A DNA stretch of 64,000 nt, taken from IMG/VR virus record IMGVR_UViG_3300046804_001959; one strand, given 5' to 3'. Made by a program: the position numbers and the translations under genes. The DNA is from a virus (taxonomy: Duplodnaviria > Heunggongvirae > Uroviricota > Caudoviricetes). Below, piece after piece: positions 5,323 to 37,658 of the stretch (the first letter of the stretch is position 1; the number at the start of each line of letters is the position of its first letter). The notes under the pieces are model-generated. The model was not told where the DNA came from. It was given only the letters and a program-made list of their open reading frames with translations, and did no database searches.

Positions 5323-5597
5323 TATTCTGTCGGAGCCTTCGGTGCAAACTTCTCTGCGCCAGTAATTCCAAGACTTGCAATGACGATGTACATCATAGCT
5401 TCGAACATGAACTGTTCGACTGTGTAATCCCAGAATAGGTTAGCGATATAGCCTACAGCGACTAGCACTGTAGCAAGCATGGCCACCCATCTCTTCGACG
5501 ACGGGTTACCGTTCCCGTCAGCCATCATTCCTTTAAAGTATCCTGCGATATCCATTTTGTCCTCCTTAGAAAGGACCGTGATCCTCGTCAGATTCAT
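5322..5597 (-). CDS. Small two-TM membrane protein (holin candidate)
   Basis: 91 aa. WVAMLATVLVAVGYIANLFW and MMYIVIASLGITGA are hydrophobic helices with a charged C-terminus. Sits next to the spanins. Confidence 0.4.
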   Translation of the reverse strand: MNLTRITVLSKEDKMDIAGYFKGMMADGNGNPSSKRWVAMLATVLVAVGYIANLFWDYTVEQFMFEAMMYIVIASLGITGAEKFAPKAPTE

Positions 5598-6015
5598 GAT
5601 ACTTGTCGATCGCTGCCATCATCTTAATTTCATTATCTACTTCAATTGACTCGGCCTCGGCGTTGATTTTGTGTGCCTCTGCGAGAGCTTTGTGATCCGT
5701 TGTGCCAAGAGTTTGTGTCTTGACGTTTGGATCGAACTCTGTTACTTTCATGCCCATCATCGTCGCGAAGGCACCTACGAAGGCACCTACGATGGTCGAG
5801 AACGCTGGGCCGATGATCTTAAAGATCTCGTTGTTGTCGATCAGCTCGTTCGGCATGAACATACCGATGAGGAAGATTGCAACGACAGCAAGCATGATAG
5901 TGCCAAGAATCGTGGCAGCCATCTTCATGATGGTCAGTTGGATCTTACCCTTCTCGAGTTCGAGTTGCTCGAACGAAGTGATCTGCGGTGTTGAGAAAAA
6001 CGACGTCAGACTCAT
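5566..6015 (-). CDS. Membrane protein (multi-TM), lysis-region neighbour
   Basis: 149 aa with several hydrophobic spans (MAATILGTIMLAVVAIFLIGMF; IIGPAFSTIVGAFVGAFATMMG). Confidence 0.4.
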   Translation of the reverse strand: MSLTSFFSTPQITSFEQLELEKGKIQLTIMKMAATILGTIMLAVVAIFLIGMFMPNELIDNNEIFKIIGPAFSTIVGAFVGAFATMMGMKVTEFDPNVKTQTLGTTDHKALAEAHKINAEAESIEVDNEIKMMAAIDKYHESDEDHGPF

Positions 6016-6230
6016 TTCTTTTTTCTACCCTTTGTAGCCTTCTTCACTTGAGTCACAGCATCAGTGATCTGATCATTGATAACTACTGCGGCTTTATTAA
6101 TCTCTTCGTTGGCTTTCTTCAGTTCTTTTTCTGCAAGAGCTTTTGCAAGCTCTATATCTTCTGCTGTTACTTTGCCGTCTCTATCAAGATCAAGAGCTCT
6201 TGCAAACCAGTTTTTAATCTTTTCCCACAT
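6012..6230 (-). CDS. Small protein with an EF-hand-like calcium-binding loop
   Basis: DLDRDGKVTAEDIE matches the 12-residue EF-hand loop pattern D-x-D-x-D-G-x-V-x-x-x-D/E. 72 aa. Confidence 0.35.
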   Translation of the reverse strand: MWEKIKNWFARALDLDRDGKVTAEDIELAKALAEKELKKANEEINKAAVVINDQITDAVTQVKKATKGRKKK

Positions 6231-6241
6231 ATCACTCTCCG

Positions 6242-6451
6242 TTATTTTCTATTCGATGTTGATGCCAGTTTACGAGCCACGCTAGCAGGTAACCCGTCTT
6301 TTGAAACGTTAAGTAGCCCAAGTGCAGCGATTAGCAGCAGGAGGCCACGTGTGTCGTCTTTGTTACTTGCACGGTTCAATGAGTTAGCGATCACATTGAT
6401 CAAGCTATCATTCGAATCATCTTCTACTGGTAGATCTTTAAACTTCTTCAT
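6242..6451 (-). CDS. hypothetical protein
   Basis: 69-aa ORF. Confidence 0.3.
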   Translation of the reverse strand: MKKFKDLPVEDDSNDSLINVIANSLNRASNKDDTRGLLLLIAALGLLNVSKDGLPASVARKLASTSNRK

Positions 6452-6660
6452 TGCTTTGGCTCTTCTACTGTGACTGAAGTCTCTGTCACGGTGAGATTGT
6501 TCTTCTTAATAGTCTTCAGTTCCTTCGGCGCTTGCATAAGAATTGCAGGAGGTTCTGGCATGTATGCCTGCGGAACCAGTCTTGTCTTCTTACCACCAAA
6601 CATGCTACATGCAGATAAAGAGGCAACTAGAGCAACCAAGATTACTTTCTTCATGATCAT
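6448..6660 (-). CDS. Outer-membrane lipoprotein spanin subunit (o-spanin, Rz1-like)
   Basis: Signal peptide plus lipobox (LVASLSAC), 70 aa, Pro-rich. Immediately downstream of the i-spanin, overlapping by 4 nt. Confidence 0.6.
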   Translation of the reverse strand: MIMKKVILVALVASLSACSMFGGKKTRLVPQAYMPEPPAILMQAPKELKTIKKNNLTVTETSVTVEEPKQ

Positions 6661-7175
6661 TTCTCCTTCGGAGCCTTCAAGTTGGCCGCATCTATAGCTT
6701 GCTTGTTATCTGTGATCCATCTTTGCAGACTGATCAACTGTTGTTTGTTTTCATGACATACTCTATAGTTAGACAACACCACAGCAAGAGCTGCGTTGTC
6801 CATGATGCCGGAAGGAGACTTATCAGATGCTAGCTGAGCGTCAGGATCAGCGAGTCTTGCTGCTGCATCATGTAGTTCGATCCAACCGTTGGAAAGGTTG
6901 TTAGTACCTTCACCGAGGTTGACGAGCTTGTCTCTGTAGATCACTTCCTTATCATGAATTGTATTCACACGGTCGACGAATTCTGTAGTTACGTTGTCAG
7001 AGATCTTAGCATTCTCAGTCTTAAGATCCGAGATCTGCTTCTCTGCCTTTGCTTGGTAGTTGGCCAGCTCGATCTCAGCATGAGCAGAACCTTTCATGTA
7101 TCCCCAACCTGCCGCACCGAGTACGATAAAGATAATCACCATGATCTTAACAGGAAGTGGGATCAAACCAAACAT
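6657..7175 (-). CDS. Inner-membrane spanin subunit (i-spanin, Rz-like)
   Basis: N-terminal TM (IMVIIFIVLGAAGWGY) followed by a long coiled-coil periplasmic domain. 172 aa. Confidence 0.6.
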   Translation of the reverse strand: MFGLIPLPVKIMVIIFIVLGAAGWGYMKGSAHAEIELANYQAKAEKQISDLKTENAKISDNVTTEFVDRVNTIHDKEVIYRDKLVNLGEGTNNLSNGWIELHDAAARLADPDAQLASDKSPSGIMDNAALAVVLSNYRVCHENKQQLISLQRWITDNKQAIDAANLKAPKEK

Positions 7176-7176
7176 A

Positions 7177-7503
7177 TTATTTTCCTTGGAAACCCTTAAA
7201 TCTCTTGAGAACCTTTGACTTCTTGACTGGTGGTTCTCCTTGTGGTCCTACACCGAGACCTGCAACGTTACCAGCACCGACAGAGTTGCATGCTACTTCT
7301 TCGTTGGTCTCGCCTTGAAGATAGTTTGCAGCAGTAGAGATGTAGTCTTCTGCCAAAGTAATCTTCGACTGAACCCACTCTGGAAGATTGGTATCTCTCT
7401 CCAGCGAGTCATGAATACGCTGAGCGTTAGCAATAATAGACTTGAGCTGTGACATTGCCATGTCACCTTCGTAGTCGTACTCTTGTTTTTCCTTAGCCAT
7501 CAA
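7177..7503 (-). CDS. hypothetical protein
   Basis: 108-aa ORF. Confidence 0.35.
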   Translation of the reverse strand: MMAKEKQEYDYEGDMAMSQLKSIIANAQRIHDSLERDTNLPEWVQSKITLAEDYISTAANYLQGETNEEVACNSVGAGNVAGLGVGPQGEPPVKKSKVLKRFKGFQGK

Positions 7504-7889
7504 ATTTTCCTTAGCAAGCTTACTATCTTATCGTCCATTACAATATCGCTTGTGTATATCGTCTTGTTATCTGCACCGATGCCATGTATTCTATCAGGGA
7601 GTCGTCCTAATAAAACAATGAACGGCTTCAACATATGGTGATAGCCGTCCAACTTAAAGAAGAGTAGTCTTGTTGCTTCGTTGCCGAATACATTATACAG
7701 GACAACGAGATGGTTTACAATCAGTCTGTCTTTAAGTTCTCCGGATTCTTCATAACGATTGAGTAATCTTTTAATATACTTGAACCGAGCGAGATCTTCA
7801 TAGAACTCAAGGTCCTCGAAACACTGTGGGTTATCATAACACTTCGCAGCATATATTACAAAATTTGAATCATCAAGCTTTTCGATCAT
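7500..7889 (-). CDS. hypothetical protein
   Basis: 129-aa ORF. Confidence 0.4.
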   Translation of the reverse strand: MIEKLDDSNFVIYAAKCYDNPQCFEDLEFYEDLARFKYIKRLLNRYEESGELKDRLIVNHLVVLYNVFGNEATRLLFFKLDGYHHMLKPFIVLLGRLPDRIHGIGADNKTIYTSDIVMDDKIVSLLRKI

Positions 7890-8140
7890 TATGCAATTCT
7901 TACTTTGACAACCCCTGCAGCAGTATAGTATAGTTGTCCAAGAGCTACACCTGCGGTGTTAGCTGCAGTATCGTCTGCATAGGGACCTTGTACGATTGCT
8001 TTGCGTAATGTTGATAATGTAGCAGACTTTGTCGTGTTAGCGGAGATATCCTCGACGATGAAGATATCCCCGCTAGCGATCGACGTGTTGGCCGTGCCAA
8101 TGGATGTCAGTTCTGTAATCTTCTTGGCACGATCAGTCAT
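7889..8140 (-). CDS. hypothetical protein
   Basis: 83-aa ORF with 4-nt spacing to the next gene. Confidence 0.35.
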   Translation of the reverse strand: MTDRAKKITELTSIGTANTSIASGDIFIVEDISANTTKSATLSTLRKAIVQGPYADDTAANTAGVALGQLYYTAAGVVKVRIA

Positions 8141-8143
8141 TTA

Positions 8144-8989
8144 TTAGGCGTCCTTCATTACGGTATCTTCAGCGTCGGTCGAAAGGTTTCCGCCCATCGC
8201 CACGAGAGTTTCGTACTGAACGCGACCTGCGCGACCACCAGTTCCGACTGTGCGAAGTACCCAACCAGTGTGAGCTGCACCGTGTTGTACACCTGAAAGA
8301 ACCGCAACTGCTGTAGCAGTTTCACCGGTCAGTGTACCACCACCGGCAGTCGTAACGTCACCAGCAGCCTTCGTCAGTGCAATGTTAGCACCGTTTGGTG
8401 TAGCAGAAAGAGCTACTACTGTGGTGTTCGAGAACGAGATGTAGTATGTAGCAGTATCTGTCAGACCACCAGGTGTCGACAGCGTGTTACCTGCGTATAC
8501 AACCTTATCGCCTACCAAGAACTTCGAGTTAGCGGCAGTAATAGCGATGGTGTTGCTTGCAACTGCAGTGTTACCGTTGAAAACAATAGCAGCAGGTGCC
8601 GCGATCGTAACAGCTGGTGCTACACCGCTGAAACCACCGAGAGCGATGTTTGCAGTCAGAGCAGTTACACGACCAACTGCAACCGTCGAGTTAGCAGCCG
8701 AGGTGTTCGATCCACCTGTCGAGTTAGCTACAGTAACAGCAGCGTTAGCCGAGTAACCCGAACCGGCATTGACAACGATGTACTGAGCGACAGCGGCATT
8801 GCTCTGCGCCAGATTCATTTCTGTTACGTCAACACCAAACTGACCTACAACCTTGCCTGTAACGAAAGCGTTTGGCGTTACGTTACCGAACAGGTTTGTT
8901 TGGTTAGTAGTGTTTGCAGTCTTATTAAGTTGAGACACGGCCCACAGGACTGAGTTTGCCGCGTCGTCTGTATTGCCCCATTGAGCCAT
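8144..8989 (-). CDS. Ala/Thr/Gly/Asn-rich protein (possible virion or fibre-like structural protein)
   Basis: 281 aa, low complexity with repetitive NTxAxS-type segments. Confidence 0.35.
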   Translation of the reverse strand: MAQWGNTDDAANSVLWAVSQLNKTANTTNQTNLFGNVTPNAFVTGKVVGQFGVDVTEMNLAQSNAAVAQYIVVNAGSGYSANAAVTVANSTGGSNTSAANSTVAVGRVTALTANIALGGFSGVAPAVTIAAPAAIVFNGNTAVASNTIAITAANSKFLVGDKVVYAGNTLSTPGGLTDTATYYISFSNTTVVALSATPNGANIALTKAAGDVTTAGGGTLTGETATAVAVLSGVQHGAAHTGWVLRTVGTGGRAGRVQYETLVAMGGNLSTDAEDTVMKDA

Positions 8990-9021
8990 TTTTTATCTCC
9001 TGTTGAACTTTCTTTTATTTA

Positions 9022-9210
9022 TCATTCTTCAGATGTGAGCATATCGATCATGTATGCTGACATATTTTTATTAAACTTCTTTGGCTTACCGTTGTGTACG
9101 ACCGTACCTTCTTCCATCTGTACGATCTTGTTTTCAATCTTTATCTCTGTATCAGTTTCTGTTGAGATAGATTGATTACCAATGATAATGTTACCAGCTT
9201 TGATTGCCAT
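9022..9210 (-). CDS. hypothetical protein
   Basis: 62-aa ORF. Confidence 0.3.
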   Translation of the reverse strand: MAIKAGNIIIGNQSISTETDTEIKIENKIVQMEEGTVVHNGKPKKFNKNMSAYMIDMLTSEE

Positions 9211-9218
9211 GTTACACC

Positions 9219-10694
9219 TTATACGTGTTTCATCAGTTGCTCGTGAGAGTGACCGATCTTCTTCTGGAAATCTTCCTTCTCGTTCGGCTTCATGCCAGCA
9301 TACTTATCGAGTAGCTTAGCAGCATGTGCACCCGAAACGTGCTTCGAGTCACCGTGTGTGAAGTGAATCGTAGATCCGCCTTGCATCGATGTCTTCGCCT
9401 TCTGAAGTTGGTTGATGATGTGCTGGCCTGCTTCAGTCTTTGGCTTCTCAAGAACCTTGTTCTTCTGAAGAAGTTCGATCTTCTTCATGTGCTCAGGGTT
9501 ATTGTGCATCAGCTTTTCTTTTGTCTTCGGATGGATGGTAAAGTCCTTACCACCTGCCTTCTTCGGACGGCCGCGAGCTTCGTCGAGTGTGTCTGCGTTT
9601 AGAGAATCGATGAAGTCTTGCTCTTCCTTCGTCAGCTTATTAACCGCTCGAGCAATGCCTTTTTCACGCTTGCCCATATCTTTAAAGTTCTTCTTCGAGT
9701 TCTCATCAGAAGCAATCTTGAGACCGGCAGTAATACCTTGAGTGCCAATTTTCGTAGCAGCCTTGTTGATGTAACGACCCATTGTGGCCTTCGACAACTC
9801 GTCGAGCTGTTCGAACGATTCATCTACACCCTTGACAAAATTCTTACGGATATTCTTAGATGCCTTAGTATAACCCTTTGTTCTCTTGTTGTAAGTATCG
9901 GTATCGTCGTTAGCATCAGCATCAATGATATCTTTACGAGCTTTGCTTCTGTAGCTGTCAAGAGTCTTGGTTGACAACTCGTCGATCTGCTCGGCATCTT
10001 CTGAAACGATACGTGCACTCTTTGTTGAAGGATCGTTACGATAACGATTCAGCGCTTTGTATGCATTTGTTGGATGAACAGGAACTTTCTTCTTGTGGCC
10101 AAGAAGATGAGTTACTTCGATGTACTGTTTGTTCTTCTCAGCAGTCGACTTCGGCAAACCAGTTTTGTTTTCGCCTTCTTCTAGGTCGACTTCTTCTTTG
10201 GCAAGAGTATTGTTACCAAGACGATCGATAGCGTTTCTAGCTCCGACCTGTCTCTTCAACTTCTGATCTCCAGTTGCAGTCTTGCTCTGTGCTAAAGCCT
10301 TCTTAGAATAGTTCTTCAGAAGAGCATCAGAAAGCTCATCGATCTGCTCAGCTTCTTCCTTTACGCCATACTTTTTCTTGGCATCTGCAACAGACTTCTT
10401 GGTCTGGCGCTGGGCCTTCAGCTCAGCTTCAAGAGCATCGTCGATCTCTTCCTTGACTGGCTTCTTTTCCTTGGCAAGCAGAGCACGAACCTTGTCAGCA
10501 GTCTTCTTGTTTGCTTCAGTCGGCTCATCAGAAGTAGGAACATATCCTTCTTCCATGTCATCATCTTCTTTGCCTTCGTCTTCGCACTCGCACTTGGCGC
10601 AGCCGCATTCTTTGCACTTCTTGGCTTCGCCGAGAACACCGCGAACGGCGTCGAGAAGATCAGCACTGAAGTCTGTAAACTTTTTAGTAAGCAT
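9219..10694 (-). CDS. Lys/Glu-rich protein with an internal repeated motif
   Basis: 491 aa. A Cys cluster (CKECGCAKCECED) is followed by three copies of the module (E/D)AEQIDELS / ESFEQLDELS. Confidence 0.5.
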   Translation of the reverse strand: MLTKKFTDFSADLLDAVRGVLGEAKKCKECGCAKCECEDEGKEDDDMEEGYVPTSDEPTEANKKTADKVRALLAKEKKPVKEEIDDALEAELKAQRQTKKSVADAKKKYGVKEEAEQIDELSDALLKNYSKKALAQSKTATGDQKLKRQVGARNAIDRLGNNTLAKEEVDLEEGENKTGLPKSTAEKNKQYIEVTHLLGHKKKVPVHPTNAYKALNRYRNDPSTKSARIVSEDAEQIDELSTKTLDSYRSKARKDIIDADANDDTDTYNKRTKGYTKASKNIRKNFVKGVDESFEQLDELSKATMGRYINKAATKIGTQGITAGLKIASDENSKKNFKDMGKREKGIARAVNKLTKEEQDFIDSLNADTLDEARGRPKKAGGKDFTIHPKTKEKLMHNNPEHMKKIELLQKNKVLEKPKTEAGQHIINQLQKAKTSMQGGSTIHFTHGDSKHVSGAHAAKLLDKYAGMKPNEKEDFQKKIGHSHEQLMKHV

Positions 10695-10707
10695 TGGTTA
10701 CTCCTGA

Positions 10708-11145
10708 TTATCTTTTAAGGGTTGCTCTTAAGAACCACGCATGTTTCTTGTGCTGATCAAGGCGGTCTTCTAGAAAATTAACTAATCCGTTTTCACCATA
10801 TTTATCGGCGACGTCTCGTGCTGCCTTCAGGCTAATGAGTACCTTTTGGTTATCATCGAAAAGCTTCTCTGCCATGGCTACAGGAGTAGGGATCGTTTCT
10901 TCTCCCATCACGGTCGTCAGCTCATCGAGTCTCTTGAAGGATCCAGGTGCATAAGCGTTCTGAGCTCTGATCTCTTCGGCGAATGCATCCACAGCTCCGT
11001 AAACTTCAGAGTAGATGGTTTCAAACAAACCATGGTACTGATAGAAGTCAGGACCTTCTACGTTCCAGTGGAAATAGTGTGCCTTCAAATACATTGAGAA
11101 TGTATCTGCAAACGCTTTCTTCAGCGGTACTACGATCTCTTCCAT
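10708..11145 (-). CDS. dps: Dps-family ferritin-like DNA-protection protein
   Basis: FADTFSMYLKAHYFHWNVEGPDFYQYHGLFE and DQHKKHAWFLRA follow the Dps ferroxidase-site pattern (HW..G..F...H). 145 aa. Confidence 0.65.
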   Translation of the reverse strand: MEEIVVPLKKAFADTFSMYLKAHYFHWNVEGPDFYQYHGLFETIYSEVYGAVDAFAEEIRAQNAYAPGSFKRLDELTTVMGEETIPTPVAMAEKLFDDNQKVLISLKAARDVADKYGENGLVNFLEDRLDQHKKHAWFLRATLKR

Positions 11146-14457: not shown

Positions 14458-15068
14458 TAACTAATCCAGTTCTTAAATCTGACGATGAACGACTCATGAA
14501 TACCCATTCCCTTACGAACGTCATGGTACAGTTCATCTTTGTGTGCTTTACTCATTCCAGATGGTGCCATCTTATGGAATGACTCTTTGTCTCCAGCTGC
14601 AGCGTGCTTACGCATAGCAGTACCAGAAGCAGACTCGATTCCGCCTCCACCTTCCTTGCGTTCACCACCTACTGACTTCACTTTGATGCTCTTGAAGTTG
14701 TAGTGACCGTGACGTCCTTCAGCACCGTTGTACTTATGAAGAAGATCATGAAACTCTTTCACGCGATCTGAGCCGACATGCATGGTAACATGAGTGTAGC
14801 CTTGCTTATGCAGCTTCGACATCTGATGAAGTAGAGTAGGGTGATCCTTACTCATAGCCTCGACGTGTGCACCCTTGACAGCACGAGAAAGATGCTTGAC
14901 CTTCTGCTCAGGTGTTAGCGGGTTCTTCTTGGCATCATGAGATCCAGTCGTCAAGATCTTATGGTCTGCGCCTTCTTTTTTGGCAGCATCCATCACATGC
15001 TTGACTACCATCTCGTGGCCGGCATGGACTGGATTGAATCGACCTTGTGTGATATGAATGGACTTCAT
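14457..15068 (-). CDS. HxGH-motif nucleotidyltransferase (cytidylyltransferase / NMNAT-like fold)
   Basis: GRFNPVHAGHEMVV is the (T/H)xGH motif and IESASGTAMRK is the ISxTxxR-like motif. It overlaps the next gene by 4 nt. Confidence 0.55.
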   Translation of the reverse strand: MKSIHITQGRFNPVHAGHEMVVKHVMDAAKKEGADHKILTTGSHDAKKNPLTPEQKVKHLSRAVKGAHVEAMSKDHPTLLHQMSKLHKQGYTHVTMHVGSDRVKEFHDLLHKYNGAEGRHGHYNFKSIKVKSVGGERKEGGGGIESASGTAMRKHAAAGDKESFHKMAPSGMSKAHKDELYHDVRKGMGIHESFIVRFKNWIS

Positions 15069-16234
15069 AGTGCTTTGTCCCTGTTAAAGTTAGCAGCCGA
15101 GAACTCAGCACGATCAACGATCTTAGTAGGACGATTATGTCTTACAACAACAAATCCCTCGGGTTTTGATTTCTTTCCATTGATGCTATGATCAAACTCT
15201 GCACCGCTCGAGAGCGTATGAGCGAGAACATCCTTTGCCTTCTGCAAGTACTTATGCTGGTTGAGGATGTTCTGAAAGTGTGCACGGTTACGTTGAACAT
15301 GACTGATGGCAGCTTCCATCGCAGCGGTCTTAGCAGCCTTCGAAGCGGGAGTCTTGACTCCTTCGATCTTCTTCATGTGCGACTTCATGTAGTGATCCAT
15401 GAAAGCTTCTACAGTAGGCTTTGTACCTGTACGAACCGTATGGTTGATGTATGTCTTGAGAGGAATCTCATGGCCTTTGATAGCTTCGAAGGTTTCAGGC
15501 TTCGCTTGCTTATTAGCCTTCGCAGCGAGAGTCATAGCTTTCGCAAAACGTTCTTTCTGCTGAGGTGTGTACTTGATCTGCGAGAGATCATGATCGGTAG
15601 AGATGAGATGCACATCGCGATGCAGACCGAACTCGTTGAGATCAGGAGCGTACTCAGCTTGCATATCCTCAAGAGTCTTGCCGTTGTACTTCGTGTGTAC
15701 AGCTACACCTACCTTGGCATTCTTTGCAGCCTTGCCATGTGGAGAGTTGGCAGGAGTCGAGTATGTGATGGTGTTCGGTGTAAAGTGAACACGACCGTTG
15801 GTTTCATGCACATCTTCAGGAGTATGCATGATATCGCCTTGGAAAACACCCTTCTTTGGAGTCACCTTAGGAAGATGATGCAGAGCAGCCTTTAGTTTCG
15901 CTACCAGGCCTGGAGCATGGCCATGGTTCTTCTGGATATCTTCATCGGTATAGTTGATCTTCGGGTTCTTGTTGAACACCGACTTGGATGCAACGAAGAA
16001 TCGACCAGTCTGAGGATGGCGACCGAACACAACAGAAGGAGAACCATCATACTTCATGGTTACCTTCGTAGCGTTGTTCTTACCTGACAGACGATCGTGA
16101 ACGTCTTTCAGGTTATGAAAGGCATGAGAGAAACCCTCGTTGCCTGCATTGATCACGTGATCTTCAGCATGCTCGAGATGCTTGAGCACCTTCTCATCGA
16201 CTTCTTCTGCAAGGAAATTTCTAAAACTTGTCAT
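15065..16234 (-). CDS. KxDG-motif protein, possibly an ATP-dependent polynucleotide ligase or adenylyltransferase
   Basis: TMKYDGSPSV resembles motif I (KxDG) of covalent nucleotidyltransferases and of T4 Rnl1 (KEDGS). An EGFVVV motif lies near the C-terminus. Translationally coupled to its neighbours. Confidence 0.35.
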   Translation of the reverse strand: MTSFRNFLAEEVDEKVLKHLEHAEDHVINAGNEGFSHAFHNLKDVHDRLSGKNNATKVTMKYDGSPSVVFGRHPQTGRFFVASKSVFNKNPKINYTDEDIQKNHGHAPGLVAKLKAALHHLPKVTPKKGVFQGDIMHTPEDVHETNGRVHFTPNTITYSTPANSPHGKAAKNAKVGVAVHTKYNGKTLEDMQAEYAPDLNEFGLHRDVHLISTDHDLSQIKYTPQQKERFAKAMTLAAKANKQAKPETFEAIKGHEIPLKTYINHTVRTGTKPTVEAFMDHYMKSHMKKIEGVKTPASKAAKTAAMEAAISHVQRNRAHFQNILNQHKYLQKAKDVLAHTLSSGAEFDHSINGKKSKPEGFVVVRHNRPTKIVDRAEFSAANFNRDKAL

Positions 16235-16836
16235 CGTATTCTCTTTACCGATCCATCGTGGTTAACGAACCAAGCTTCGAACTGAATTCCTGGATACTCG
16301 TCAGAGAGTTCCAAGAAAGCCTTGAGGTTACTCATGGCATCGTCATACAGTCGAGTCTTAGTGTAGTTCTGTGTATTTAAGTATTTCCGAAAGATCACTT
16401 TCTTGGCTTCGGCCGAAGAGTCGATGCCAAGGTTACCAGCACGTTCGACATGCATCTCGTCGATAGGTAGACCATGATCACGGAAGGTCTGAAGGAACAT
16501 CTTCTTGTTGTCAAAGTCTGCGCGCGCAGTACAGATGATCGCGCGAGAATGAGGGTTCTTCTTGGCCTTGACGATTGCCTTGGCCTTCTCGATCATCTTA
16601 ACAACAGGAACAGAAGTCTTACGAAAAACAGCGGCCGATTTGAATTCCTTAAAGTCGTACTCTTCACCGGCTTTCCTCTTATATGTATTAAACTCTTGGT
16701 TGTCTAGCATTCGAACGACTTTGCCGTCCTTGACGACCGCAACCTTCGCCTTCGTATGGAAGAGCGTCTCATCGATATCGAATATCGTGAGAGTACCTGT
16801 ACCGATGAACTTTTTAAAACGACTTACTTTCTTCAT
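16231..16836 (-). CDS. HAD-superfamily phosphatase (Pnk 3-prime-phosphatase-like)
   Basis: IFDIDETLF is HAD motif I (DxDxT) and ICTAR is motif II. 201 aa. Confidence 0.6.
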   Translation of the reverse strand: MKKVSRFKKFIGTGTLTIFDIDETLFHTKAKVAVVKDGKVVRMLDNQEFNTYKRKAGEEYDFKEFKSAAVFRKTSVPVVKMIEKAKAIVKAKKNPHSRAIICTARADFDNKKMFLQTFRDHGLPIDEMHVERAGNLGIDSSAEAKKVIFRKYLNTQNYTKTRLYDDAMSNLKAFLELSDEYPGIQFEAWFVNHDGSVKRIR

Positions 16837-16852
16837 ATTCTCAGTCTACAAT

Positions 16853-16876
16853 GTTTTCGAAATAATGTACATGCCT
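16853..16876 (-). promoter_or_regulatory. Phage promoter motif (ttcgaaataaTGTACAtgcc)
   Basis: One instance of the recurring GTGTACA-containing motif, upstream of the HAD phosphatase gene. Confidence 0.5.
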
Positions 16877-21223: not shown

Positions 21224-21496
21224 TTAATACTCAGGGCCCCAAGATTTATCAGTACGTTCATACACTTGAAACCAGTCTACACCGTATGCAGGACAGACGT
21301 GTATCTGTTTAGGTAGGTTGTTACTATCTTTCTCTCCACCTTCACCGCAGATGAAGTAGATATCGCCCATCTGCTCATGAAGCAGCTCGTGCTTGATCAG
21401 AGACTTGATCTTACGGAGCTCACGAAGCTCACCTTCGTACGCTTCTACTTCGAGGTTCATCTTACTTTCTATCCAAAATAATGCTACCGGCAACAA
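21224..21496 (-). CDS. hypothetical protein
   Basis: 90-aa ORF. Confidence 0.35.
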   Translation of the reverse strand: MLPVALFWIESKMNLEVEAYEGELRELRKIKSLIKHELLHEQMGDIYFICGEGGEKDSNNLPKQIHVCPAYGVDWFQVYERTDKSWGPEY

Positions 21497-21544: not shown

Positions 21545-22654
21545 TCATACTTCCTTCTCCACAATAATCGAGCAACACTTACCACCAAATCCAAACGAGT
21601 TCACCAACACCTTCTTGACATCAGTATCGATGTTCTCTGTCACCACATCCATGTCTGTGTCCTTGCATCCAGCAGTATGAGGGATCACGCTGTTCTGAAT
21701 TGAAAGAATGCTGTAGATGGTCTCGAGTACACCAGCTGCAGCGAACGTATGACCAATCTTACCTTTGTTGGAGTAGATCGGTGCATCAGTAAACTCTCGA
21801 ACCACGTTGTACTCTACCACATCTCCGAGTGGTGTACTCGTTCCATGAGAGTTGACCGAGTCAACGCCTTCAAGATCTAGTTTTTCAAGACACGCGCGAG
21901 CACCAGTCCCAGAAGGAGCAGTAGTATCGTGTGCGTCAGAAGCATTTGCCACTCCTGTAATACGAGCATACACCTTCGAACCCATCTGTTCGGCTTTCTC
22001 GCGAGACTGCAGAATGATGCAACCTGCTCCTTCACCCATGATAAAGCCATCACGATTCTTATCGAAAGGACGAGATACCTTACCAAGTGCTCTGATTACA
22101 GAGAAGAAGTACAGATCCATGGCATTGACACCTGCATCGGATCCACCTACGATCACGTAGTCGTAGTCGTCGAGCAGTCGCATGGCATAGTCGATGCTGA
22201 CCAGCCCGGTCGCACACGCCGAGTATGTCATGGTATTGATACCAGTGTATCCGTACTTGATCGAGATCTGACTGCAGAGGTAATCCATCGTCGAGCGAAG
22301 GATCTGCTTCGGCATAAGCCTCTTGCCAGCTGCCTGAGCTTTTGCTTTCGAAGAGTTTCCGCCGGTGAGAGTCGAAAAGATCACACCTACGTTAGACGAA
22401 TGTGGTAGAGCAGCCATCTGTAGTGCTTGATCGACTGCATGCATGCCATAGTAGACTGTACGGGGAGTCAAATCTTCGTCGATCTTGACATCGGGATAGA
22501 ACCCGTACTGTACTTTTAGACCGTGGCCTTCATGAACATGAGGATCGATAGGCATATGAAAGTCATGGTCGTTGAGCATGTTTTTCCAACACGTAATAGG
22601 ATTATCTCCTAACGCGTCGATCATGCCAAACCCAACTACACAAGCTTCTTTCAT
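21545..22654 (-). CDS. Beta-ketoacyl-(acyl-carrier-protein) synthase, FabF/FabB-like (KAS I/II fold)
   Basis: Active-site Cys in YSACATGLVSIDYA, His in HGTSTPLGD, Lys/His in KGKIGHTFAAAG, C-terminal NSFGFGGKCCS. 369 aa. Confidence 0.8.
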   Translation of the reverse strand: MKEACVVGFGMIDALGDNPITCWKNMLNDHDFHMPIDPHVHEGHGLKVQYGFYPDVKIDEDLTPRTVYYGMHAVDQALQMAALPHSSNVGVIFSTLTGGNSSKAKAQAAGKRLMPKQILRSTMDYLCSQISIKYGYTGINTMTYSACATGLVSIDYAMRLLDDYDYVIVGGSDAGVNAMDLYFFSVIRALGKVSRPFDKNRDGFIMGEGAGCIILQSREKAEQMGSKVYARITGVANASDAHDTTAPSGTGARACLEKLDLEGVDSVNSHGTSTPLGDVVEYNVVREFTDAPIYSNKGKIGHTFAAAGVLETIYSILSIQNSVIPHTAGCKDTDMDVVTENIDTDVKKVLVNSFGFGGKCCSIIVEKEV

Positions 22655-23067
22655 TCTACAACCTTCTTGTATCGATTAATCGTGCCATCTGGTTCAACTA
22701 CCATGATCTCATCGAGATCCTTGTTCTCGGCCATGACACGATGTTCACCTTCGGCAATCACACGATCGTGTTCACGAAGCTTACGCATCACAGCGTTCGC
22801 TATACCATACTTATTACGATCGGTATCGATAGCCTCTTGTGCTGCATCAGCACATGCACGATACAGTTCGTCAGGAAGTTCCCAACTCATTTCTGTAACG
22901 ACGTTACGGCCGTCTGGCATCTTTCCAAGACCACCGACTCGGCGAAGATATGCTTGGCCACCGTCTACCGAGATGGTTCCACAATGGCAAGTTACGAAGT
23001 CATGACGGTGTTTCGAGACGATGAACTCGCCACACTTATTACAAATCACTGCATTCTGAACGATCAT
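22651..23067 (-). CDS. Zinc-ribbon protein
   Basis: CNKCGEF...CHCG gives four Cys. 138 aa. Confidence 0.4.
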   Translation of the reverse strand: MIVQNAVICNKCGEFIVSKHRHDFVTCHCGTISVDGGQAYLRRVGGLGKMPDGRNVVTEMSWELPDELYRACADAAQEAIDTDRNKYGIANAVMRKLREHDRVIAEGEHRVMAENKDLDEIMVVEPDGTINRYKKVVE

Positions 23068-23294
23068 GCTACGAGCCTTTCATGCACTTGCTTGATGTGC
23101 TTACACTTGTTGTAGAAGTTGAAACCTGGACAATCGCATACCCAACCTTGATCGAGCATCGTCACGTGGTACTGCTTACCCTTACAGTTGACGTAAGGCC
23201 AAGTCAGACCGACCAGATGGTGATCATGAAAATTCACCCCAGGCAAAGCCAGAGGTGTGCGAAAAGCGGAGTATCGAGGTGTATGGTCAATCAT
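23064..23294 (-). CDS. SWIM zinc-finger protein
   Basis: VCDCPGFNFYNKCKHIK matches the SWIM pattern CxCx(n)CxH. Confidence 0.5.
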   Translation of the reverse strand: MIDHTPRYSAFRTPLALPGVNFHDHHLVGLTWPYVNCKGKQYHVTMLDQGWVCDCPGFNFYNKCKHIKQVHERLVA

Positions 23295-23943: not shown

Positions 23944-24759
23944 TTACTTGACGTTGATGATGCCCTTAAAGTCGTAAGGCACAACGACCGAGTGGACCTT
24001 GCCGTTCTTCACACCTTCGGCAATGTCCTGTAGAGCCATCGCAGCCATGTACTGAGTAGCACCACGGTTGGCGTTCAGAGCAGCGATACGCTCGGCTTCG
24101 AGCTTAGCGGTCTGAACTTCAACCTGCTTACGCTTCTGTTCGTTCTGAGCCTGAACGAGAGCGTTAGCCGAGGCAACGATGTTATCAGCAGGCTTGATCG
24201 AACGAACCAGAACCTGCGAGACGTCGATCACACCGTCAAGCTTTTCAGCTGCCAACTGAGCAACGATTTCCTGACGAACCAGGTTTTCGATCTCTGCGCG
24301 GTTATCAGCCATCTTCAACGACTCGTACTTACGAGCAACCTTATAAGCAGCGTTACGACCGAGCTGACGAACATAGTTGTACATCAGCAGCGTGTCACCT
24401 TCTTCGGTATCAGCATGGAAGCCACGGTTCTTCTCGATGTAGATCTCAGCGACAGAGGTCGGGTTGATCGAGTAAATGACCGACAGATCGAAGTCAGCGA
24501 TCGTCGAGTTGTCAGCAGCCAGCGGAGTCATGTCGGTAATGTCAACCGAGACGTCCTTGGTCGGGAACGTCAGCACGTCACCGAAGATAACCTGGTTGAC
24601 AGTACCAGGCTGCAGCTCAGTGGTCTCGATGGTCTTGTCGAACGAGCGACGAACACCGACTTCGCCAGTTTCGATTCGAGTACATGCAGCCGAAGCGATA
24701 GCGAGAGCCGAGACAGCAGCGAGCTTAAGATAACGATTCATTCTAAATAGTCCTTTCAA
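23944..24759 (-). CDS. SPFH/band-7 (prohibitin/HflK-like) lipoprotein
   Basis: Signal peptide plus lipobox (LAIASAAC), a band-7 domain, and a C-terminal coiled coil with an Ala/Gln-rich tail. Confidence 0.6.
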   Translation of the reverse strand: MKGLFRMNRYLKLAAVSALAIASAACTRIETGEVGVRRSFDKTIETTELQPGTVNQVIFGDVLTFPTKDVSVDITDMTPLAADNSTIADFDLSVIYSINPTSVAEIYIEKNRGFHADTEEGDTLLMYNYVRQLGRNAAYKVARKYESLKMADNRAEIENLVRQEIVAQLAAEKLDGVIDVSQVLVRSIKPADNIVASANALVQAQNEQKRKQVEVQTAKLEAERIAALNANRGATQYMAAMALQDIAEGVKNGKVHSVVVPYDFKGIINVK

Positions 24760-28896: not shown

Positions 28897-30308
28897 TTAA
28901 ACTCCGCAAACTTGTTTCGATTGAACTTGTTGACTGGCTTTGACTCATCGAGTAGGCGACTGCCTGAGCCAGAGTTGTCAAAGACAGGAACATCATCGTC
29001 TTGTAAGACATCTTCCTGTGCAGACATCTCTACGTTGTACAGTCTCATCTTCGAGTAGTCGACACCGATGACGAATCGCTTATGAACGGCAGGATCACCG
29101 TAACGATTCTTCAGCTGCTTGACCATGATCTGACCGAGCTGTCGAAGCTCGTCGCTCGTGATCAAGGCAAACATAAAGTCGGCGGTAGCTGGTAGACCGA
29201 ACGACTCTGAGGTATCCTCGAGACCGACGTCAGAGTTACTGAAACCTGAACGATTAGTCTGAGTAGCCGAGATGATGGGTACGTTGAACTCGACGGCCAA
29301 GCCACGGAGCTCTTCGGCGATCGCCTTGATGTAGGTGTACGAGTTCACGTTCGATCCCGGCTTGATCCTCGACGACGCGCAGATGTTGAGGTAATCGATG
29401 TAGATGATGTCGGGTACGAAGTTCTTCTTTATCTTCAGTTCGTTCAAGAGATGCCTGAAGTTTGCTGAGCCTGCGCATGCTGTAGGGTATTCCTTCACGA
29501 TGAGCTTGCCTTTGGCTCGCTCTTTGACTCGACCTACCAACTTGTAGTAGATGGCTTGCGGTAGTTCTTTGAGATCGTCGAGCGTAACACCGAGAAGGTT
29601 GGCATCGATACGTTCGGCGATTCTTTCTTCGGCCATTTCCATGGTGATGTACAGGACGTTCTGACCTGCCATCAAGTTATGAGCCGCGTTGTGACACATG
29701 AACAAGGACTTACCGACACCAGTACCGGCGAGAGCGATGTTCAGAGTCTTACGAGGCAGACCACCTTGAGTGATCTTGTTGAAGAAATCCAGATCGAAGC
29801 CGATACGAACTTCCTTACGATGATAGAACTCATATCGTTCTGCTGCATCATCAAGGAAGTCATGACCGATGTGTGTATCGAAAGAAACACCGAGCGCATC
29901 GGTCAGGATCTGAGGGATAGCACCGACCGAGATGCTATCCTTCTTGCTGTCGTCTACGATCTGAATGGATTTCATCAAGGCATTGTAGAGTGCCTTGTCT
30001 TTACAGAACTTCTCGGTATTATCTACGAGCCATTCGACGTCTCGATCTTCTGACTTCTGAAGACCGTTGACGAGCTCCTTCGCTGCCTTGAACTGGTCGT
30101 CAGACAGTCCGCTAGCATCGTTGAGCTCGATCTCGACGGCAGACTTTGTAGGGAAGTTGTTGTACTTCCCTACGTAGTCGTTGATGATGGAGAAGATTTT
30201 ACGTTCTACAGTGTCGGTAAAGTATTCCTCCTTGAGAAACGGGATTACCTTGCGACTGTAGTTTTCGTTTTCGAGTAAGTTAGCAAATATGACATGTTCA
30301 ATTCTCAT
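28893..30308 (-). CDS. Replicative DNA helicase (T4 gp41 / DnaB-like)
   Basis: Walker A LAGTGVGKS, ISMEMAEERIAERIDAN, SATQTNRSG...ESFGLPATADFMFA. Co-linear with T4 gp41. 471 aa. Confidence 0.88.
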   Translation of the reverse strand: MRIEHVIFANLLENENYSRKVIPFLKEEYFTDTVERKIFSIINDYVGKYNNFPTKSAVEIELNDASGLSDDQFKAAKELVNGLQKSEDRDVEWLVDNTEKFCKDKALYNALMKSIQIVDDSKKDSISVGAIPQILTDALGVSFDTHIGHDFLDDAAERYEFYHRKEVRIGFDLDFFNKITQGGLPRKTLNIALAGTGVGKSLFMCHNAAHNLMAGQNVLYITMEMAEERIAERIDANLLGVTLDDLKELPQAIYYKLVGRVKERAKGKLIVKEYPTACAGSANFRHLLNELKIKKNFVPDIIYIDYLNICASSRIKPGSNVNSYTYIKAIAEELRGLAVEFNVPIISATQTNRSGFSNSDVGLEDTSESFGLPATADFMFALITSDELRQLGQIMVKQLKNRYGDPAVHKRFVIGVDYSKMRLYNVEMSAQEDVLQDDDVPVFDNSGSGSRLLDESKPVNKFNRNKFAEFK

Positions 30309-36170: not shown

Positions 36171-36704
36171 TTACTTTTCCTTACGTTCTGCTAGAAATTC
36201 TGCAGTCGAAGGAGCAGCAGATGTTTCCTCTTCAGTATCGATTTCTACCTTCTTCGGCTTCTTGTGTTCTGGAATGATAGCTTCAAGAGCGATCTTCAGA
36301 ATGCCGTTCAGGAGCGAGGCACCACGAATCTCGACATTATCTGCGAGACTGAAGGTGCGTGTGAAAGGACGCATAGCGAGTCCTTGATGTAGGATCTGAG
36401 GCCAAGTCCATTCACCGCGAGAGTCTTGCTCTGCTGGTTCACCTGACTTGACATTACCCTTGATGATGAGCTTGTCATCGACGATCTCGATCTCGAGATC
36501 TTGCTTACCGAAACCGGCTACTGCCATCTCGATAGTGTATCGATTGTCATCGATCTTTTTGAGATTATATGGAGGATATTTGGTGGCCAGCTTTGCAGTT
36601 TCGTCTGCTACTGTTGCCATTCTTTCGGCGACCTTATCGAATCCGACAAAGAAACGATCAAGGTCCTTAAACGTGTGGTTGAAGTCCCAACCTGCCATAT
36701 GCAT
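36171..36704 (-). CDS. Small heat-shock protein (Hsp20/alpha-crystallin family)
   Basis: YNLKKIDDNRYTIEMAVAGFGKQDLEIEIVDDKLIIKG...NGILKIAL is an alpha-crystallin domain. Confidence 0.75.
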   Translation of the reverse strand: MHMAGWDFNHTFKDLDRFFVGFDKVAERMATVADETAKLATKYPPYNLKKIDDNRYTIEMAVAGFGKQDLEIEIVDDKLIIKGNVKSGEPAEQDSRGEWTWPQILHQGLAMRPFTRTFSLADNVEIRGASLLNGILKIALEAIIPEHKKPKKVEIDTEEETSAAPSTAEFLAERKEK

Positions 36705-36732: not shown

Positions 36733-37176
36733 TCACCCATTAGGCGTGACGGGTTTATTTATAAGATAAAGTTGGACGCCGGCTTCAAGAAACATCTGTT
36801 TTGTAACGTGCCAGTTAAAATGTGGGACATCATCGATAGGTTGATACGAGATCACCTTCTTGATGCCCTTCTGAATGATAGACTTCGCACACTCGTTGCA
36901 TGGAAGCAGTGGACTGTACAGCGTGCAGCCTTCTACTGAGAGCGGAGCGTTGTCGAGTGCATTACGTTCTGCGTGTGCTACGAAGAGGTGCTTCGTCGGT
37001 CGGTCAGCATATCTCTCTACGAGATCCTTCACTCCACGAGGAAATCCGTTGAAACCAACAGATACGATACGATTCTGCTTGTCGACGATCACGCATCCAA
37101 CCTGTGTAGTAGGATCCTTCGACCACGTGGCAATATGATCGGCGAGATCAAGAAAACGTTCAGACCACTTACTCAT
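36733..37176 (-). CDS. dCMP deaminase (cytidine/deoxycytidylate deaminase family)
   Basis: HAERNA (H-A-E zinc ligand) and PCNECA (PCxxC). Confidence 0.85.
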   Translation of the reverse strand: MSKWSERFLDLADHIATWSKDPTTQVGCVIVDKQNRIVSVGFNGFPRGVKDLVERYADRPTKHLFVAHAERNALDNAPLSVEGCTLYSPLLPCNECAKSIIQKGIKKVISYQPIDDVPHFNWHVTKQMFLEAGVQLYLINKPVTPNG

Positions 37177-37658
37177 TTCTTACCTGCTTTCAAAATACGT
37201 TCGCGAAGGGCCGACGAACTATAACTATGCTTGCGTGGGCAATAGTGAATTGGAATATCAAGATCAGATCCAGTAAAGTCAGTACGACCGACGTAGTCTT
37301 CACCAAGGAAACGAATGTCCCAGTCATAACCTACAAGCATATTGTAAAGATCTGCTTCAGTGTCGTACGGAACGACCTGATCAACATACTCGCACGACTC
37401 GACCTGCACAAAGCGCTCGAACAATCCTTGAATAGGCTTGTTCTTTTCAGGTCGATCGAGAGTAGGATCTGACTGAAGAGCTACTACCAAACGATCACAG
37501 TGCTGCTTAGCATCATACAACATGAGAACATGACCTGCATGGAACAGATCGAAGCAACTCGCTACGATTCCTACGCGTTCAGCCATTCTGCAATTACTCC
37601 GATTATAATGATAAAGGCAAGAAGACCCAAGCAACCCGTACCAGTTAAACCTTCCCAC
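37173..37658 (-). CDS. Cytidylyltransferase-like nucleotidyltransferase (second HxGH protein). The likely start is MAERVGIV.
   Basis: GIVASCFDLFHAGHVLML resembles the TagD/RfaE-domain-II signature. Confidence 0.55.
   Translation of the reverse strand: MGRFNWYGLLGSSCLYHYNRSNCRMAERVGIVASCFDLFHAGHVLMLYDAKQHCDRLVVALQSDPTLDRPEKNKPIQGLFERFVQVESCEYVDQVVPYDTEADLYNMLVGYDWDIRFLGEDYVGRTDFTGSDLDIPIHYCPRKHSYSSSALRERILKAGKK

Follow-up and report, generated by a model that had tools for sequence, protein, structure and literature searches.

A phage-carried beta-ketoacyl synthase from a distinct, mostly viral branch of the FabF/FabB family

The genome of an uncultivated T4-like phage includes a native, intact gene for a KAS I/II-family beta-ketoacyl-ACP synthase (KS), which evolves under strong purifying selection. 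Judged from its phylogeny and distribution, the KS belongs to a large, mostly viral and distinct branch of the FabF/FabB family that has so far gone undescribed. The enzyme is probably catalytically competent, and we think it rather likely that it is an ACP-dependent elongating synthase, a lipid-remodelling auxiliary metabolic gene (AMG) product that acts on the type II fatty-acid synthase (FAS) of the host. The phage lipid genes recognised so far are desaturases, and the elongation of fatty acids has not been regarded as a step under direct phage control. If the KS is active, phages would act on membrane lipid synthesis at its flux-controlling step, where carbon-carbon bonds are formed, and in lakes, rivers and oceans the physiology of hosts would be affected.

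The gene, its phage and its family

In the ORF list of the 64-kb window, which is the whole stretch of DNA analysed, the KS is a 369-aa ORF with an ATG start on the minus strand (positions 21545–22654), exactly as the first-pass annotation had given it. Its assignment draws on the ORF itself, Pfam, AlphaFold, Foldseek and dN/dS. The start codon overlaps the stop of the upstream DUF7695 gene (22651–23067) in an ATGA at 22651–22654 (minus strand), and a Shine-Dalgarno-like AAGAAGG within that upstream gene, 7 nt 5' of the start codon (22662–22668, minus strand), may serve as the ribosome-binding site. The overlap implies co-transcription and translational coupling of the two genes. A sequence scan of the minus strand between the DUF7695 gene and the KS found no terminator-like site; scans for σ70 promoters and terminators gave counts not above shuffled expectation.

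The genomic setting is viral on both sides, with phage ATPase phrog_2376, UvsX, DnaB, gp43 and structural genes flanking the KS. The window comes from an uncultivated T4-like phage and its T4-type context is confirmed: it holds UvsX, a DnaB-like helicase, clamp and clamp-loader genes, an RNA ligase and 26 tRNA genes, and its gp43-type DNA polymerase is 50% identical to the polymerases of T4-like cyanophages. The GC content of the KS (0.482, versus 0.471 for the window) and its codon usage, which falls inside the range of neighbouring genes, fit this setting, and dN/dS against ten relatives is 0.02–0.10. The same KS with the same flanking genes is present on approximately 30 independent IMG/VR contigs (loci L091–L124) and on contigs of 160–164 kb from several assemblies. 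Viral flanks, recurrence on independent contigs and purifying selection, the operational marks of a viral AMG, are thus all seen for this gene.

At 27–31% identity to FabF, the KS failed every NCBIfam equivalog cutoff in the profile search. The best-scoring NCBIfam-type profiles are FabF models, though below cutoff (TIGR03150, the FabF equivalog, 229.2 bits versus 493.75; PRK07314, 225.9 bits versus 387), and the FabB model PRK07967 gives 153.1 bits versus a cutoff of 630. Phylogeny against FabF and FabB, a check proposed in the first-pass annotation, set the family apart from canonical FabF and E. coli FabB as a clade of its own (NJ tree, 100/100 bootstrap). The description "FabF/FabB-like" therefore holds at the level of the condensing-enzyme family, but the protein is an ortholog of neither enzyme and sits in a separate, mostly viral clade. 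IMG labels exactly this protein "3-oxoacyl-ACP synthase II".

Members of the clade occur on at least 147 IMG/VR contigs and fall into more than 110 protein clusters, and a single variant 84% identical to the KS was found on 150 contigs. No PHROGs family was matched by the KS, and INPHARED contains no relative above 35% identity, leaving the clade without a cultured phage. KS-like matches in the phage collection were limited to canonical host-type genes, approximately 30% identical, in unannotated or prophage-type records, and megablast of the 15 kb around the KS against this collection gave no nucleotide match. The earlier view that a condensing enzyme is not T4-type gene content is accurate for cultured phages, where no PHROG was matched and INPHARED relatives reach at most 35%, but in uncultivated phages the KS is a recurrent accessory gene (147 contigs). 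A near-identical host gene, which the first-pass annotation had named as evidence of chimerism, was not found, the nearest cellular homologue being 39–44% identical at the amino-acid level. One Deinococcales MAG lineage nests within the otherwise viral clade, with a stable chromosomal copy inherited across at least 12 species; this position within viral diversity makes it a candidate case in which a core metabolic enzyme moved from virus to cell.

Fold, active site and ACP-docking surface

Pfam domain calls were judged against gathering thresholds, and both ketoacyl-synthase domains exceed them: PF00109 (N-terminal; 5.7e-25, 88.8 bits versus a cutoff of 20.8) and PF02801 (C-terminal; 9.1e-20, 71.3 bits versus 20.8). 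Together with the viral flanks and the start/stop overlap, these domains support the original description of the gene as a phage-encoded FabF/FabB-like beta-ketoacyl synthase. The AlphaFold model (pLDDT 94.5, pTM 0.95) has the thiolase-type alpha-beta-alpha-beta-alpha fold of KAS I/II enzymes, and Foldseek aligned it with PaFabF (8qer) at a TM-score of 0.93 (E = 2e-40). FabB structures matched equally well, so the FabF/FabB subtype cannot be assigned from the fold. Nine short loop deletions in the alignment make the KS approximately 40 residues shorter than FabF, and despite these deletions its core is modelled with high confidence.

The active-site motifs of the KS are TYSACATGL (Cys147), NSHGTSTPLGD (His270), NKGKIGHTFAAAG (Lys297 and His302) and NSFGFGGKC (Phe356). 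Alignment with E. coli FabF and FabB, and with FabF proteins of solved structure, places these residues on FabF Cys163, His303, Lys335, His340 and Phe400. On the minus strand, the nucleophile Cys147 is encoded at 22214–22216, the first catalytic histidine, His270, at 21845–21847, Lys297 at 21764–21766 and the second catalytic histidine, His302, at 21749–21751; each is invariant in all 110 family members. The full set of invariant positions (110/110, FabF numbering) is C163, F229, D265, H303, T305, T307, G310, D311, E314, K335, H340, N396 and G399–G402. Lys299 of the KS is likewise invariant in the family, yet it aligns with FabF Met337. The first-pass annotation had described a complete KAS I/II constellation with a Lys-x-x-His element. 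The Cys, both His, the Lys and NSFGFGG are indeed intact, but the spacing was misread: the catalytic lysine is Lys297, in a K-x4-H arrangement with His302 that corresponds to FabF K335/H340. The active-site Cys, whose integrity in relatives had been suggested as a check, is retained in 110 of 110; a CLF-like Gln, raised at the same time as possible counter-evidence, does not replace Cys147, and the triad is kept.

Elongating KAS enzymes share a gating consensus consisting of N396-x-x-G-F-G-G-x-N404 in loop 1 and Asp265 in loop 2 (PMC7138838). Within the family, N396, GFGG, F400 and D265 are all invariant. The loop-2 gating residue is Asp240 in the KS (21935–21937, minus strand; equivalent to FabF Asp265; 110/110). 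Loop 1, identified by alignment and from PMC7138838, spans residues 352–360 (N-S-F-G-F-G-G-K-C; 21575–21601, minus strand) and contains Phe356 of the gate as well as Cys360, which is specific to the family. This Cys occupies the position of FabF Asn404 in 109 of 110 members, and the adjacent Thr403 position is Lys or Arg in every one of the 110. Asn404 is conserved in type II FAS elongating synthases, where it couples loop 1 to Asp265 (PMC7138838). Loop 2 of the family has the length of that in FabB and shares its A-P-S-G core (DAHDTTAPSGTG in the KS versus DGADMVAPSGEG in E. coli FabB).

ACP docking by FabF involves the basic residues K65, R68 and K69 (region 1) and R127, K128 and R206 (PMC7138838). 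Region 2 is represented in the KS by Lys111-Arg112 (22319–22324, minus strand), which align with FabF Arg127-Lys128; across the family the K128 position is Arg or Lys in 106/110 and the R127 position is Lys or Arg in 66/110. The P131 position is Pro in 95/110, and the R206 position is Arg or Lys in 57/110. Region 1 is eroded, with K65 falling within a deletion and the R68 position basic in only 57/110. The replacement of Asn404 by Cys and the erosion of region 1 suggest that gating, substrate range or carrier partner may differ from those of FabF and FabB. If active, the family would be a natural experiment on KAS gating, built on a minimal 369-aa scaffold with Cys for Asn404, and would be useful for enzymology and for the engineering of fatty-acid and polyketide synthases.

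Gene neighbourhoods and proposed function

The first-pass observation that no ACP, FabD or FabG gene lies nearby holds for the whole 64-kb window by Pfam, tblastn and phmmer. There was no PP-binding match among the 48 small ORFs, no Fab family among the best 25 of the 39 Pfam families matched by the 52 larger ORFs, and nothing at E < 0.1 in tblastn and phmmer searches with E. coli AcpP, FabD, FabG, FabH and PlsX. Near-identical contigs extend approximately 12 kb past the window ends, and this DNA also has no ACP or Fab genes; in total, the partner search covered approximately 76 kb, from a genome of about 164 kb. No second KS- or CLF-like ORF adjoins the KS in the ORF list or the neighbour annotation. 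Individual candidates in the window were set aside: the 90-aa ORF downstream of the KS (21224–21496), considered as an ACP, has no Pfam match; a weak ACP-like tblastn match at 29436–29669 (E = 0.03) lies within the DnaB-like helicase gene and is spurious; and the ORF at 42959–44110, with a weak desaturase match (tblastn, E = 0.014), encodes a FecR-domain protein. Since ACP, FabD, FabG and FabH are all missing from the window, the KS would have to use the ACP and the reductive enzymes of the host.

Fatty-acid desaturases are the most recurrent KS neighbours in five other viral subclades. A membrane fatty-acid desaturase is located two genes downstream of the KS in subclades C and D, and a divergent three-His-box desaturase lies within 4–6 kb of it in subclades B, E and F; the three-His-box cluster as a whole is represented in 5 subclades and 22 loci. 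In subclades C and D, an APS kinase and a sulfotransferase also share a stretch of at most 6 kb with the KS and the desaturase. The APS kinase is a repeated neighbour, seen in 4 subclades, and a 2OG-Fe(II) oxygenase is directly downstream of the KS in 4. At locus L155, a co-directional block encodes APS kinase, an ACP (PP-binding, 5e-8; approximately 4 kb upstream of the KS), four 2OG-Fe(II) oxygenases, the KS, a soluble acyl-ACP desaturase overlapping the KS stop codon (FA_desaturase_2, 3.7e-52) and a PhyH dioxygenase. This is the one ACP in the fetched flanks of approximately 100 family loci; a 65–66-aa ORF downstream of the KS at L001 and L003 was considered and rejected, having no DSL motif and no ACP match. 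Canonical cellular FabF loci, examined as a control, show a plsX-fabH-fabD-fabG-acpP context that the viral KS loci do not. No functional neighbour is universally conserved, and the upstream DUF7695 and SWIM genes are kept only in the closest clade.

It should also be noted that the desaturase and ACP neighbours belong to relatives 42–50% identical to the window KS. The subclade of the window (A) has no desaturase and no ACP within 64 kb, so the lipid theme is borrowed from relatives. A specialised product would account for the neighbouring 2OG-Fe(II) oxygenases, APS kinase and sulfotransferase just as well as bulk membrane lipid would.

As an elongating synthase, the KS would be expressed during infection and would work on the host type II FAS. 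By analogy with the family, an acyl chain would be moved from host acyl-ACP onto Cys147, malonyl-ACP would dock, and His270 and His302 with Lys297 would drive its decarboxylation, so that Claisen condensation would give a beta-ketoacyl-ACP two carbons longer. Access to the active site is predicted to be governed by the GFGG/Phe356 loop and Asp240. In this way the KS could keep acyl elongation going or redirect it during the shutdown of host expression, and so alter the supply of membrane lipids, the length of their chains and their unsaturation; in related phages it would act alongside phage-encoded desaturases. In E. coli, FabF controls the elongation of 16:1 to 18:1 and membrane thermal adaptation. 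Retention of Asp265, which is Asn in actKS (PMC7138838), and the lack of an adjacent second KS point to a FAS-like rather than an iterative-PKS-like enzyme. It is conceivable, though we hold this only tentatively, that in aquatic T4-like phages the compact, virus-evolved KS with its re-wired gate (Asn404 to Cys) forms, with phage desaturases and sometimes a phage ACP, a modular viral lipid toolkit whose range and regulation are unlike those of FabF and FabB, and that the KS passed from a virus to Deinococcales, where it is now a resident gene.

An unlikely alternative is that the KS performs a step in a phage pathway whose product is a small molecule or specialised lipid, such as a hydroxylated, desaturated or sulfated acyl compound, with a dedicated carrier and tailoring enzymes encoded beyond the window. 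The L155 block, the four-gene grouping in subclades C and D and the recurrence of APS kinase and downstream 2OG-Fe(II) oxygenases, each in 4 subclades, are all consistent with such a pathway, and the Asn404-to-Cys gate and eroded docking region 1 would suit a non-canonical carrier or substrate. However, none of these partners is in the 64-kb window, an ACP accompanies the KS at one of approximately 100 loci, and the partner sets vary from one subclade to the next, which gives no sign of one conserved pathway. Furthermore, 2OG oxygenases and APS kinase may be ordinary T4-like cargo, as both are common in the hyperplastic regions of such phages.

Among the activities of Cys-His-His synthases is decarboxylation of malonyl-ACP uncoupled from condensation, and the KS might act mainly on malonyl-ACP alone, either as a decarboxylase that drains the host pool to throttle lipid synthesis or as a priming synthase that starts new chains; we consider this improbable. 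The D265A and D265N variants of FabF, in which the Asp265/Asn404 network is weakened, nearly abolish crosslinking of a C8 probe and largely spare a malonyl-like C3 probe (PMC7138838), which lends the idea some weight in a family with Cys for Asn404 in 109 of 110 members. Nevertheless, Asp265, the GFGG hinge and Phe400 are invariant, leaving the gate otherwise intact; the repeated linkage to desaturases of long acyl chains argues for long-chain substrates, and an activity that only damages the host sits poorly with the stable copy in at least 12 Deinococcales species. A catalytically dead protein, serving as a CLF-like partner, scaffold or ACP-binding decoy, is highly improbable. The failed equivalog cutoffs and the loss of approximately 40 residues relative to FabF would fit one, but those losses are nine short loop deletions around a confidently modelled core, and all 110 family members keep the Cys, both His and the Lys, along with the oxyanion and gate positions and the counterparts of Thr305 and Thr307. 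Strict catalytic conservation with dN/dS of 0.02–0.10 is the pattern expected of an enzyme, and on the residue conservation in the family alignment a CLF-like or dead protein was rejected. Finally, there is next to no chance that the KS is a host fabF or fabB fragment placed on phage DNA by assembly chimerism or contamination. Such contamination exists generally, as the canonical host-type genes in the phage collection show, but here the start codon overlaps an upstream phage gene, composition and codon usage match the neighbours, the flanks recur on approximately 30 independent contigs and on 160–164 kb contigs, and the family is monophyletic apart from FabF/FabB (100/100), with its nearest cellular homologue 39–44% identical. 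Synteny, composition, the start overlap and the distance of cellular homologues rule this explanation out. An elongating synthase acting on the host FAS is the reading we favour.

Comparison with known systems

Bacterial FabF (KAS II; E. coli, P. aeruginosa, B. subtilis) shares with the phage KS the Pfam pair, thiolase fold, active site, GFGG/Phe gate, Asp265 and docking region 2. The phage enzyme differs in being only 27–31% identical and approximately 40 residues shorter, in having Cys for Asn404 and Lys or Arg for Thr403, and in combining a loop 2 of FabB length with the loss of part of ACP-docking region 1. It is also phage-carried and lies outside any fab operon (acpP-fabF, fabH, fabD, fabG). 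Bacterial FabB (KAS I, PRK07967) is an equally good structural match and has the same loop 2 length and A-P-S-G core, but the KS reaches 153 bits versus 630 and has no fabA partner. The role specific to FabB is elongation of cis-3-decenoyl-ACP, and there is no sign of such a role for the KS.

Type II PKS KS-alpha/CLF proteins belong to the same superfamily and have the same domain pair. The phage KS scores lower against their profiles (125 bits for PRK07103), has no adjacent second KS-like gene, and carries Cys where CLF has Gln and Asp265 where actKS has Asn.

In the virus literature, "fabF" appears in bulk AMG lists only. KEGG-based tallies of viral "fabF", "fabG" and "fabZ" (e.g. PMC10653327) apply the same automatic label to such genes, but they are read or contig counts without sequence-level, phylogenetic or context analysis, in which the distinct viral clade goes unrecognised. 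Automatic "fabF" labels in virome AMG tallies therefore conflate the KS clade with host FabF.

A functional parallel may be the viral desaturases, accepted membrane-fluidity AMGs of cyanophages and cold-environment phages (PMC5776448, PMC7300359, PMC7678222), with desaturase AMG function reported in the title of PMC5776448. Like them, the KS is a lipid enzyme of host type that T4-like and other aquatic phages carry in their variable regions, with a proposed role in host-membrane remodelling. Unlike them, it would catalyse carbon-carbon condensation rather than desaturation, and it would need ACP-bound substrates.

The ketosynthase gene and its phage genome

The beta-ketoacyl synthase (KS) gene occupies 21545-22654 on the minus strand, begins with ATG and encodes 369 aa. 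All four motifs quoted in the first-pass annotation (SACATGL, HGTSTPLGD, KGKIGHTFAAAG and NSFGFGG) are present in this ORF. The Lys-x-x-His arrangement described there requires correction: the catalytic lysine is K297, which lies five residues ahead of H302, as K335 does relative to H340 in FabF. Both Pfam ketoacyl-synthase domains were detected with scores far over threshold, the closest solved structures are FabF proteins (E ~1e-44, ~30% identity), and the motifs align onto the catalytic residues of solved FabF structures. On a 164,150-bp JGI contig, the exact protein carries the automatic IMG label 3-oxoacyl-ACP synthase II.

The window belongs to a T4-type myovirus genome. It encodes a gp43 DNA polymerase with 50% identity to T4-like cyanophage counterparts, along with a DnaB-like helicase, structural PHROGs, UvsX, the gp44/gp45 clamp loader and clamp, an RNA ligase, ThyX and 26 tRNA genes. 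No deposited phage is similar to the window DNA at the nucleotide level.

The start codon of KS and the stop codon of the DUF7695 gene upstream overlap (ATGA), with a ribosome-binding-like AAGAAGG 7 nt ahead of the start. GC content is 0.482 for KS vs 0.471 for the window, and the codon-usage correlation of KS with other phage genes (0.775) falls within the range among those genes (0.44-0.88). Approximately 30 independent IMG/VR contigs (loci L091-L124) share both KS (83-87% identical) and the same neighbours, dN/dS is 0.02-0.10 against ten of these contigs and against a further family locus, L007, and the nearest cellular homologue is only 39-44% identical. Based on the start overlap, composition, shared synteny, low dN/dS and distance from cellular homologues, the KS gene is native to the phage and assembly chimerism is excluded, which bears out the original description of KS as phage-encoded.

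The two genes upstream of KS (22651-23294, minus strand) encode the DUF7695 zinc-ribbon-like protein and then a small SWIM zinc-finger protein. The DUF7695 gene is translationally coupled to KS, and both genes are conserved alongside KS in the closest clade only (L091-L122).

Elsewhere in the window is a co-directional module of a kind rarely seen in phages (39461-46098, minus strand). It comprises a CHASE2 sensor fused to an adenylate/guanylate cyclase domain (39461-41608; also matching phrog_35576, 7e-238), an unannotated 508-aa ORF (41502-43028), a FecR-domain protein (42959-44110), a weak curlin-repeat protein (44064-44885), CsgG (44824-45648; 1.9e-52) and CsgF (45658-46098; 2.2e-18). Together these genes resemble a cassette for curli-type (type VIII) secretion and signalling carried by the phage, which implies a diderm host. 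The 26 tRNA genes form a block on the minus strand (50982-55718) that covers 20 amino acids, with two each of tRNA-Leu(tag), Lys, Arg, Ser and Ile; one Ile anticodon is tat. Host-type cargo, also on the minus strand, includes a MazE-like antitoxin-domain protein (1196-1456), an SPFH/Band-7 membrane protein (23944-24759), an HSP20 small heat-shock protein (36171-36704), a cytidylyltransferase-like protein (37173-37658), a radical-SAM/SPASM protein (46739-47758) and a Redoxin/AhpC-type peroxiredoxin (49833-50474). Ferritin-like and 2OG-Fe(II) oxygenase matches were also detected.

Classification and distribution of the KS family

FabF models are the top NCBIfam matches to KS (229 and 226 bits), and KS scores below every equivalog cutoff by a wide margin (494 is needed for FabF; 153 vs 630 for FabB). 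No PHROGs family matches KS. Among 50,697 phage records, the sole matches are ~30% identical, canonical host-type genes in unannotated or prophage-like records. OR849884, OR844991, OR848561, OR846837 and others are unannotated Staphylococcus, Listeria, Enterococcus and Escherichia "phage" records with canonical host-type FabF/FabB (~30% to KS), which suggests that they contain host DNA. In the metagenome protein collection, the KS family forms a graded series of 367-400-aa proteins, from 95% down to 42% identity, with several members on 130-240 kb contigs, and 147 IMG/VR contigs carry a family member. In a neighbour-joining (NJ) tree of 90 sequences, all viral, Deinococcales and Flavobacteriales KS fall in one clade; the long branch that parts it from canonical FabF and E. 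coli FabB has 100/100 bootstrap support.

By score, phylogeny and context, KS is outside the FabF and FabB equivalogs. Its sequence resembles that of a KAS I/II enzyme, with the defining features of the superfamily except for one conserved gating residue. The earlier assignment as a FabF/FabB-like condensing enzyme is supported, and KS is best placed in a KAS clade that is compact, carried mostly by viruses and marked by a signature of its own. Uncultivated T4-like phages commonly carry members of this clade, which cultured phages lack. Searches of the open-access literature turned up no account of a family of phage ketosynthases or 3-oxoacyl synthases; viral fabF appears there only within KEGG-based tallies of auxiliary metabolic genes (AMGs; PMC10653327).

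One genome from each of 185,579 prokaryotic species was scanned for KS relatives. Identity above 36% was confined to ~13 contigs of Deinococcales MAGs and one of a Flavobacteriales MAG, in a pattern-based scan that could miss cellular relatives without the two search motifs. Approximately 12 species-level Deinococcales MAGs (L011-L022 and L024) have a chromosomal phage-type KS with the GFGGKC signature (39-44% identity), including two copies in MAG JANMUC01 (L012, L024). The flanks of these copies are cellular (MFS transporter, subtilase, MnmG/GidA, YchF and S41 peptidase). In 100/100 NJ replicates the Deinococcales clade joined a single viral subclade (L140-L170), and viruses formed a clade without Deinococcales in 0/100; therefore, the cellular copies lie within viral diversity. 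Given the NJ tree and the motif-pattern scan, this is most simply read as a candidate virus-to-cell transfer of KS into Deinococcales.

Gene neighbourhoods of KS

The reported lack of ACP, FabD and FabG genes near KS was confirmed and extends to FabH and PlsX, across the whole window and ~12 kb past its ends (near-identical contigs). In the same scan, canonical cellular FabF loci showed the plsX-fabH-fabD-fabG-acpP neighbourhood (positive control), which was not found at the viral or Deinococcales KS loci scanned. ORF clustering around ~100 family loci revealed no universal KS neighbour. The most widely shared neighbour is a ~271-aa protein (22 loci in five subclades) with all three His boxes known from membrane fatty-acid desaturases. 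It shares 25% identity with a desaturase, recognised by Pfam, that is encoded two genes downstream of KS in subclades C and D. Other recurrent neighbours at family loci are APS kinase, sulfotransferase and, immediately downstream of KS, a 2OG oxygenase.

At locus L155, on a viral contig (IMGVR_UViG_3300005583_000005), a co-directional block (3043-10786) encodes APS kinase, ACP, four 2OG-Fe(II) oxygenases, KS, an acyl-ACP desaturase and a PhyH dioxygenase. The ACP is genuine (PP-binding domain, DSLD motif), and the soluble desaturase gene (FA_desaturase_2, 3.7e-52) overlaps the KS stop codon. For the window's own subclade, no desaturase, ACP, APS kinase, sulfotransferase or KS-adjacent 2OG oxygenase partner was found within the window.

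On three phage contigs of 196-237 kb (L001, L003 and L004), the KS-desaturase pair is followed 3-5 kb downstream by APS kinase and sulfotransferase genes (~14460-16860), which adjoin QueC and radical-SAM (7-deazaguanine-type) genes. Sulfation chemistry may be among the activities of these phages.

Catalytic residues, putative function and fold

FabF reference positions (PMC7138838) were mapped via an E. coli FabF/FabB alignment onto a 110-sequence family alignment. C163, F229, D265, H303, T305, T307, G310, D311, E314, K335, H340, N396 and G399-F400-G401-G402 are invariant (110/110). The catalytic constellation is thus intact, as first proposed: Cys, both His and Lys are present throughout, with neither triad loss nor a chain-length-factor-like Gln. 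ACP-docking region 2 is kept (R/K at position 128 in 106/110; P at P131 in 95/110), and region 1 is eroded, with K65 in a deletion and R68 basic in 57/110. Two positions depart from the type II FAS consensus: Asn404 is Cys in 109 of the 110 members, and Thr403 is Lys or Arg in all of them. The L155 KS is the sole member seen with Ser at the Asn404 position.

Judging by its enzyme family, KS is probably an active ACP-dependent elongating condensing enzyme, which the phage would use together with the ACP and reductive enzymes of its host. During infection, such an enzyme would keep fatty-acid elongation going or bias it. It could also remodel membrane acyl chains, in keeping with the part that FabF plays in cis-vaccenate production and thermal adaptation. 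Linkage to desaturases at related loci suggests such remodelling as well, in line with the role generally accepted for desaturase AMGs of viruses (PMC5776448, PMC7300359, PMC7678222).

We consider it unlikely that KS serves a dedicated specialised-lipid pathway with partner genes elsewhere in the genome. It is more doubtful still that KS works as a decarboxylase or priming enzyme directed at malonyl-ACP, a reading prompted by the N404C substitution within the gating network. Set beside the invariant catalytic residues, a dead or decoy protein is very improbable, and the chance that KS is a chimera is negligible. As an elongating enzyme, KS would plausibly represent a new and testable kind of lipid AMG in phages, with a putative function, and the sole such gene in the window; its family is an interesting natural gate variant.

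In Foldseek, the AlphaFold model of KS (pLDDT 94.5, pTM 0.95) matched FabF with a TM-score of 0.93 and FabB about equally well. KS is ~40 residues shorter than FabF through nine short loop deletions. Loop 2 of the KS family is equal in length to that of FabB, and the A-P-S-G core is common to both.
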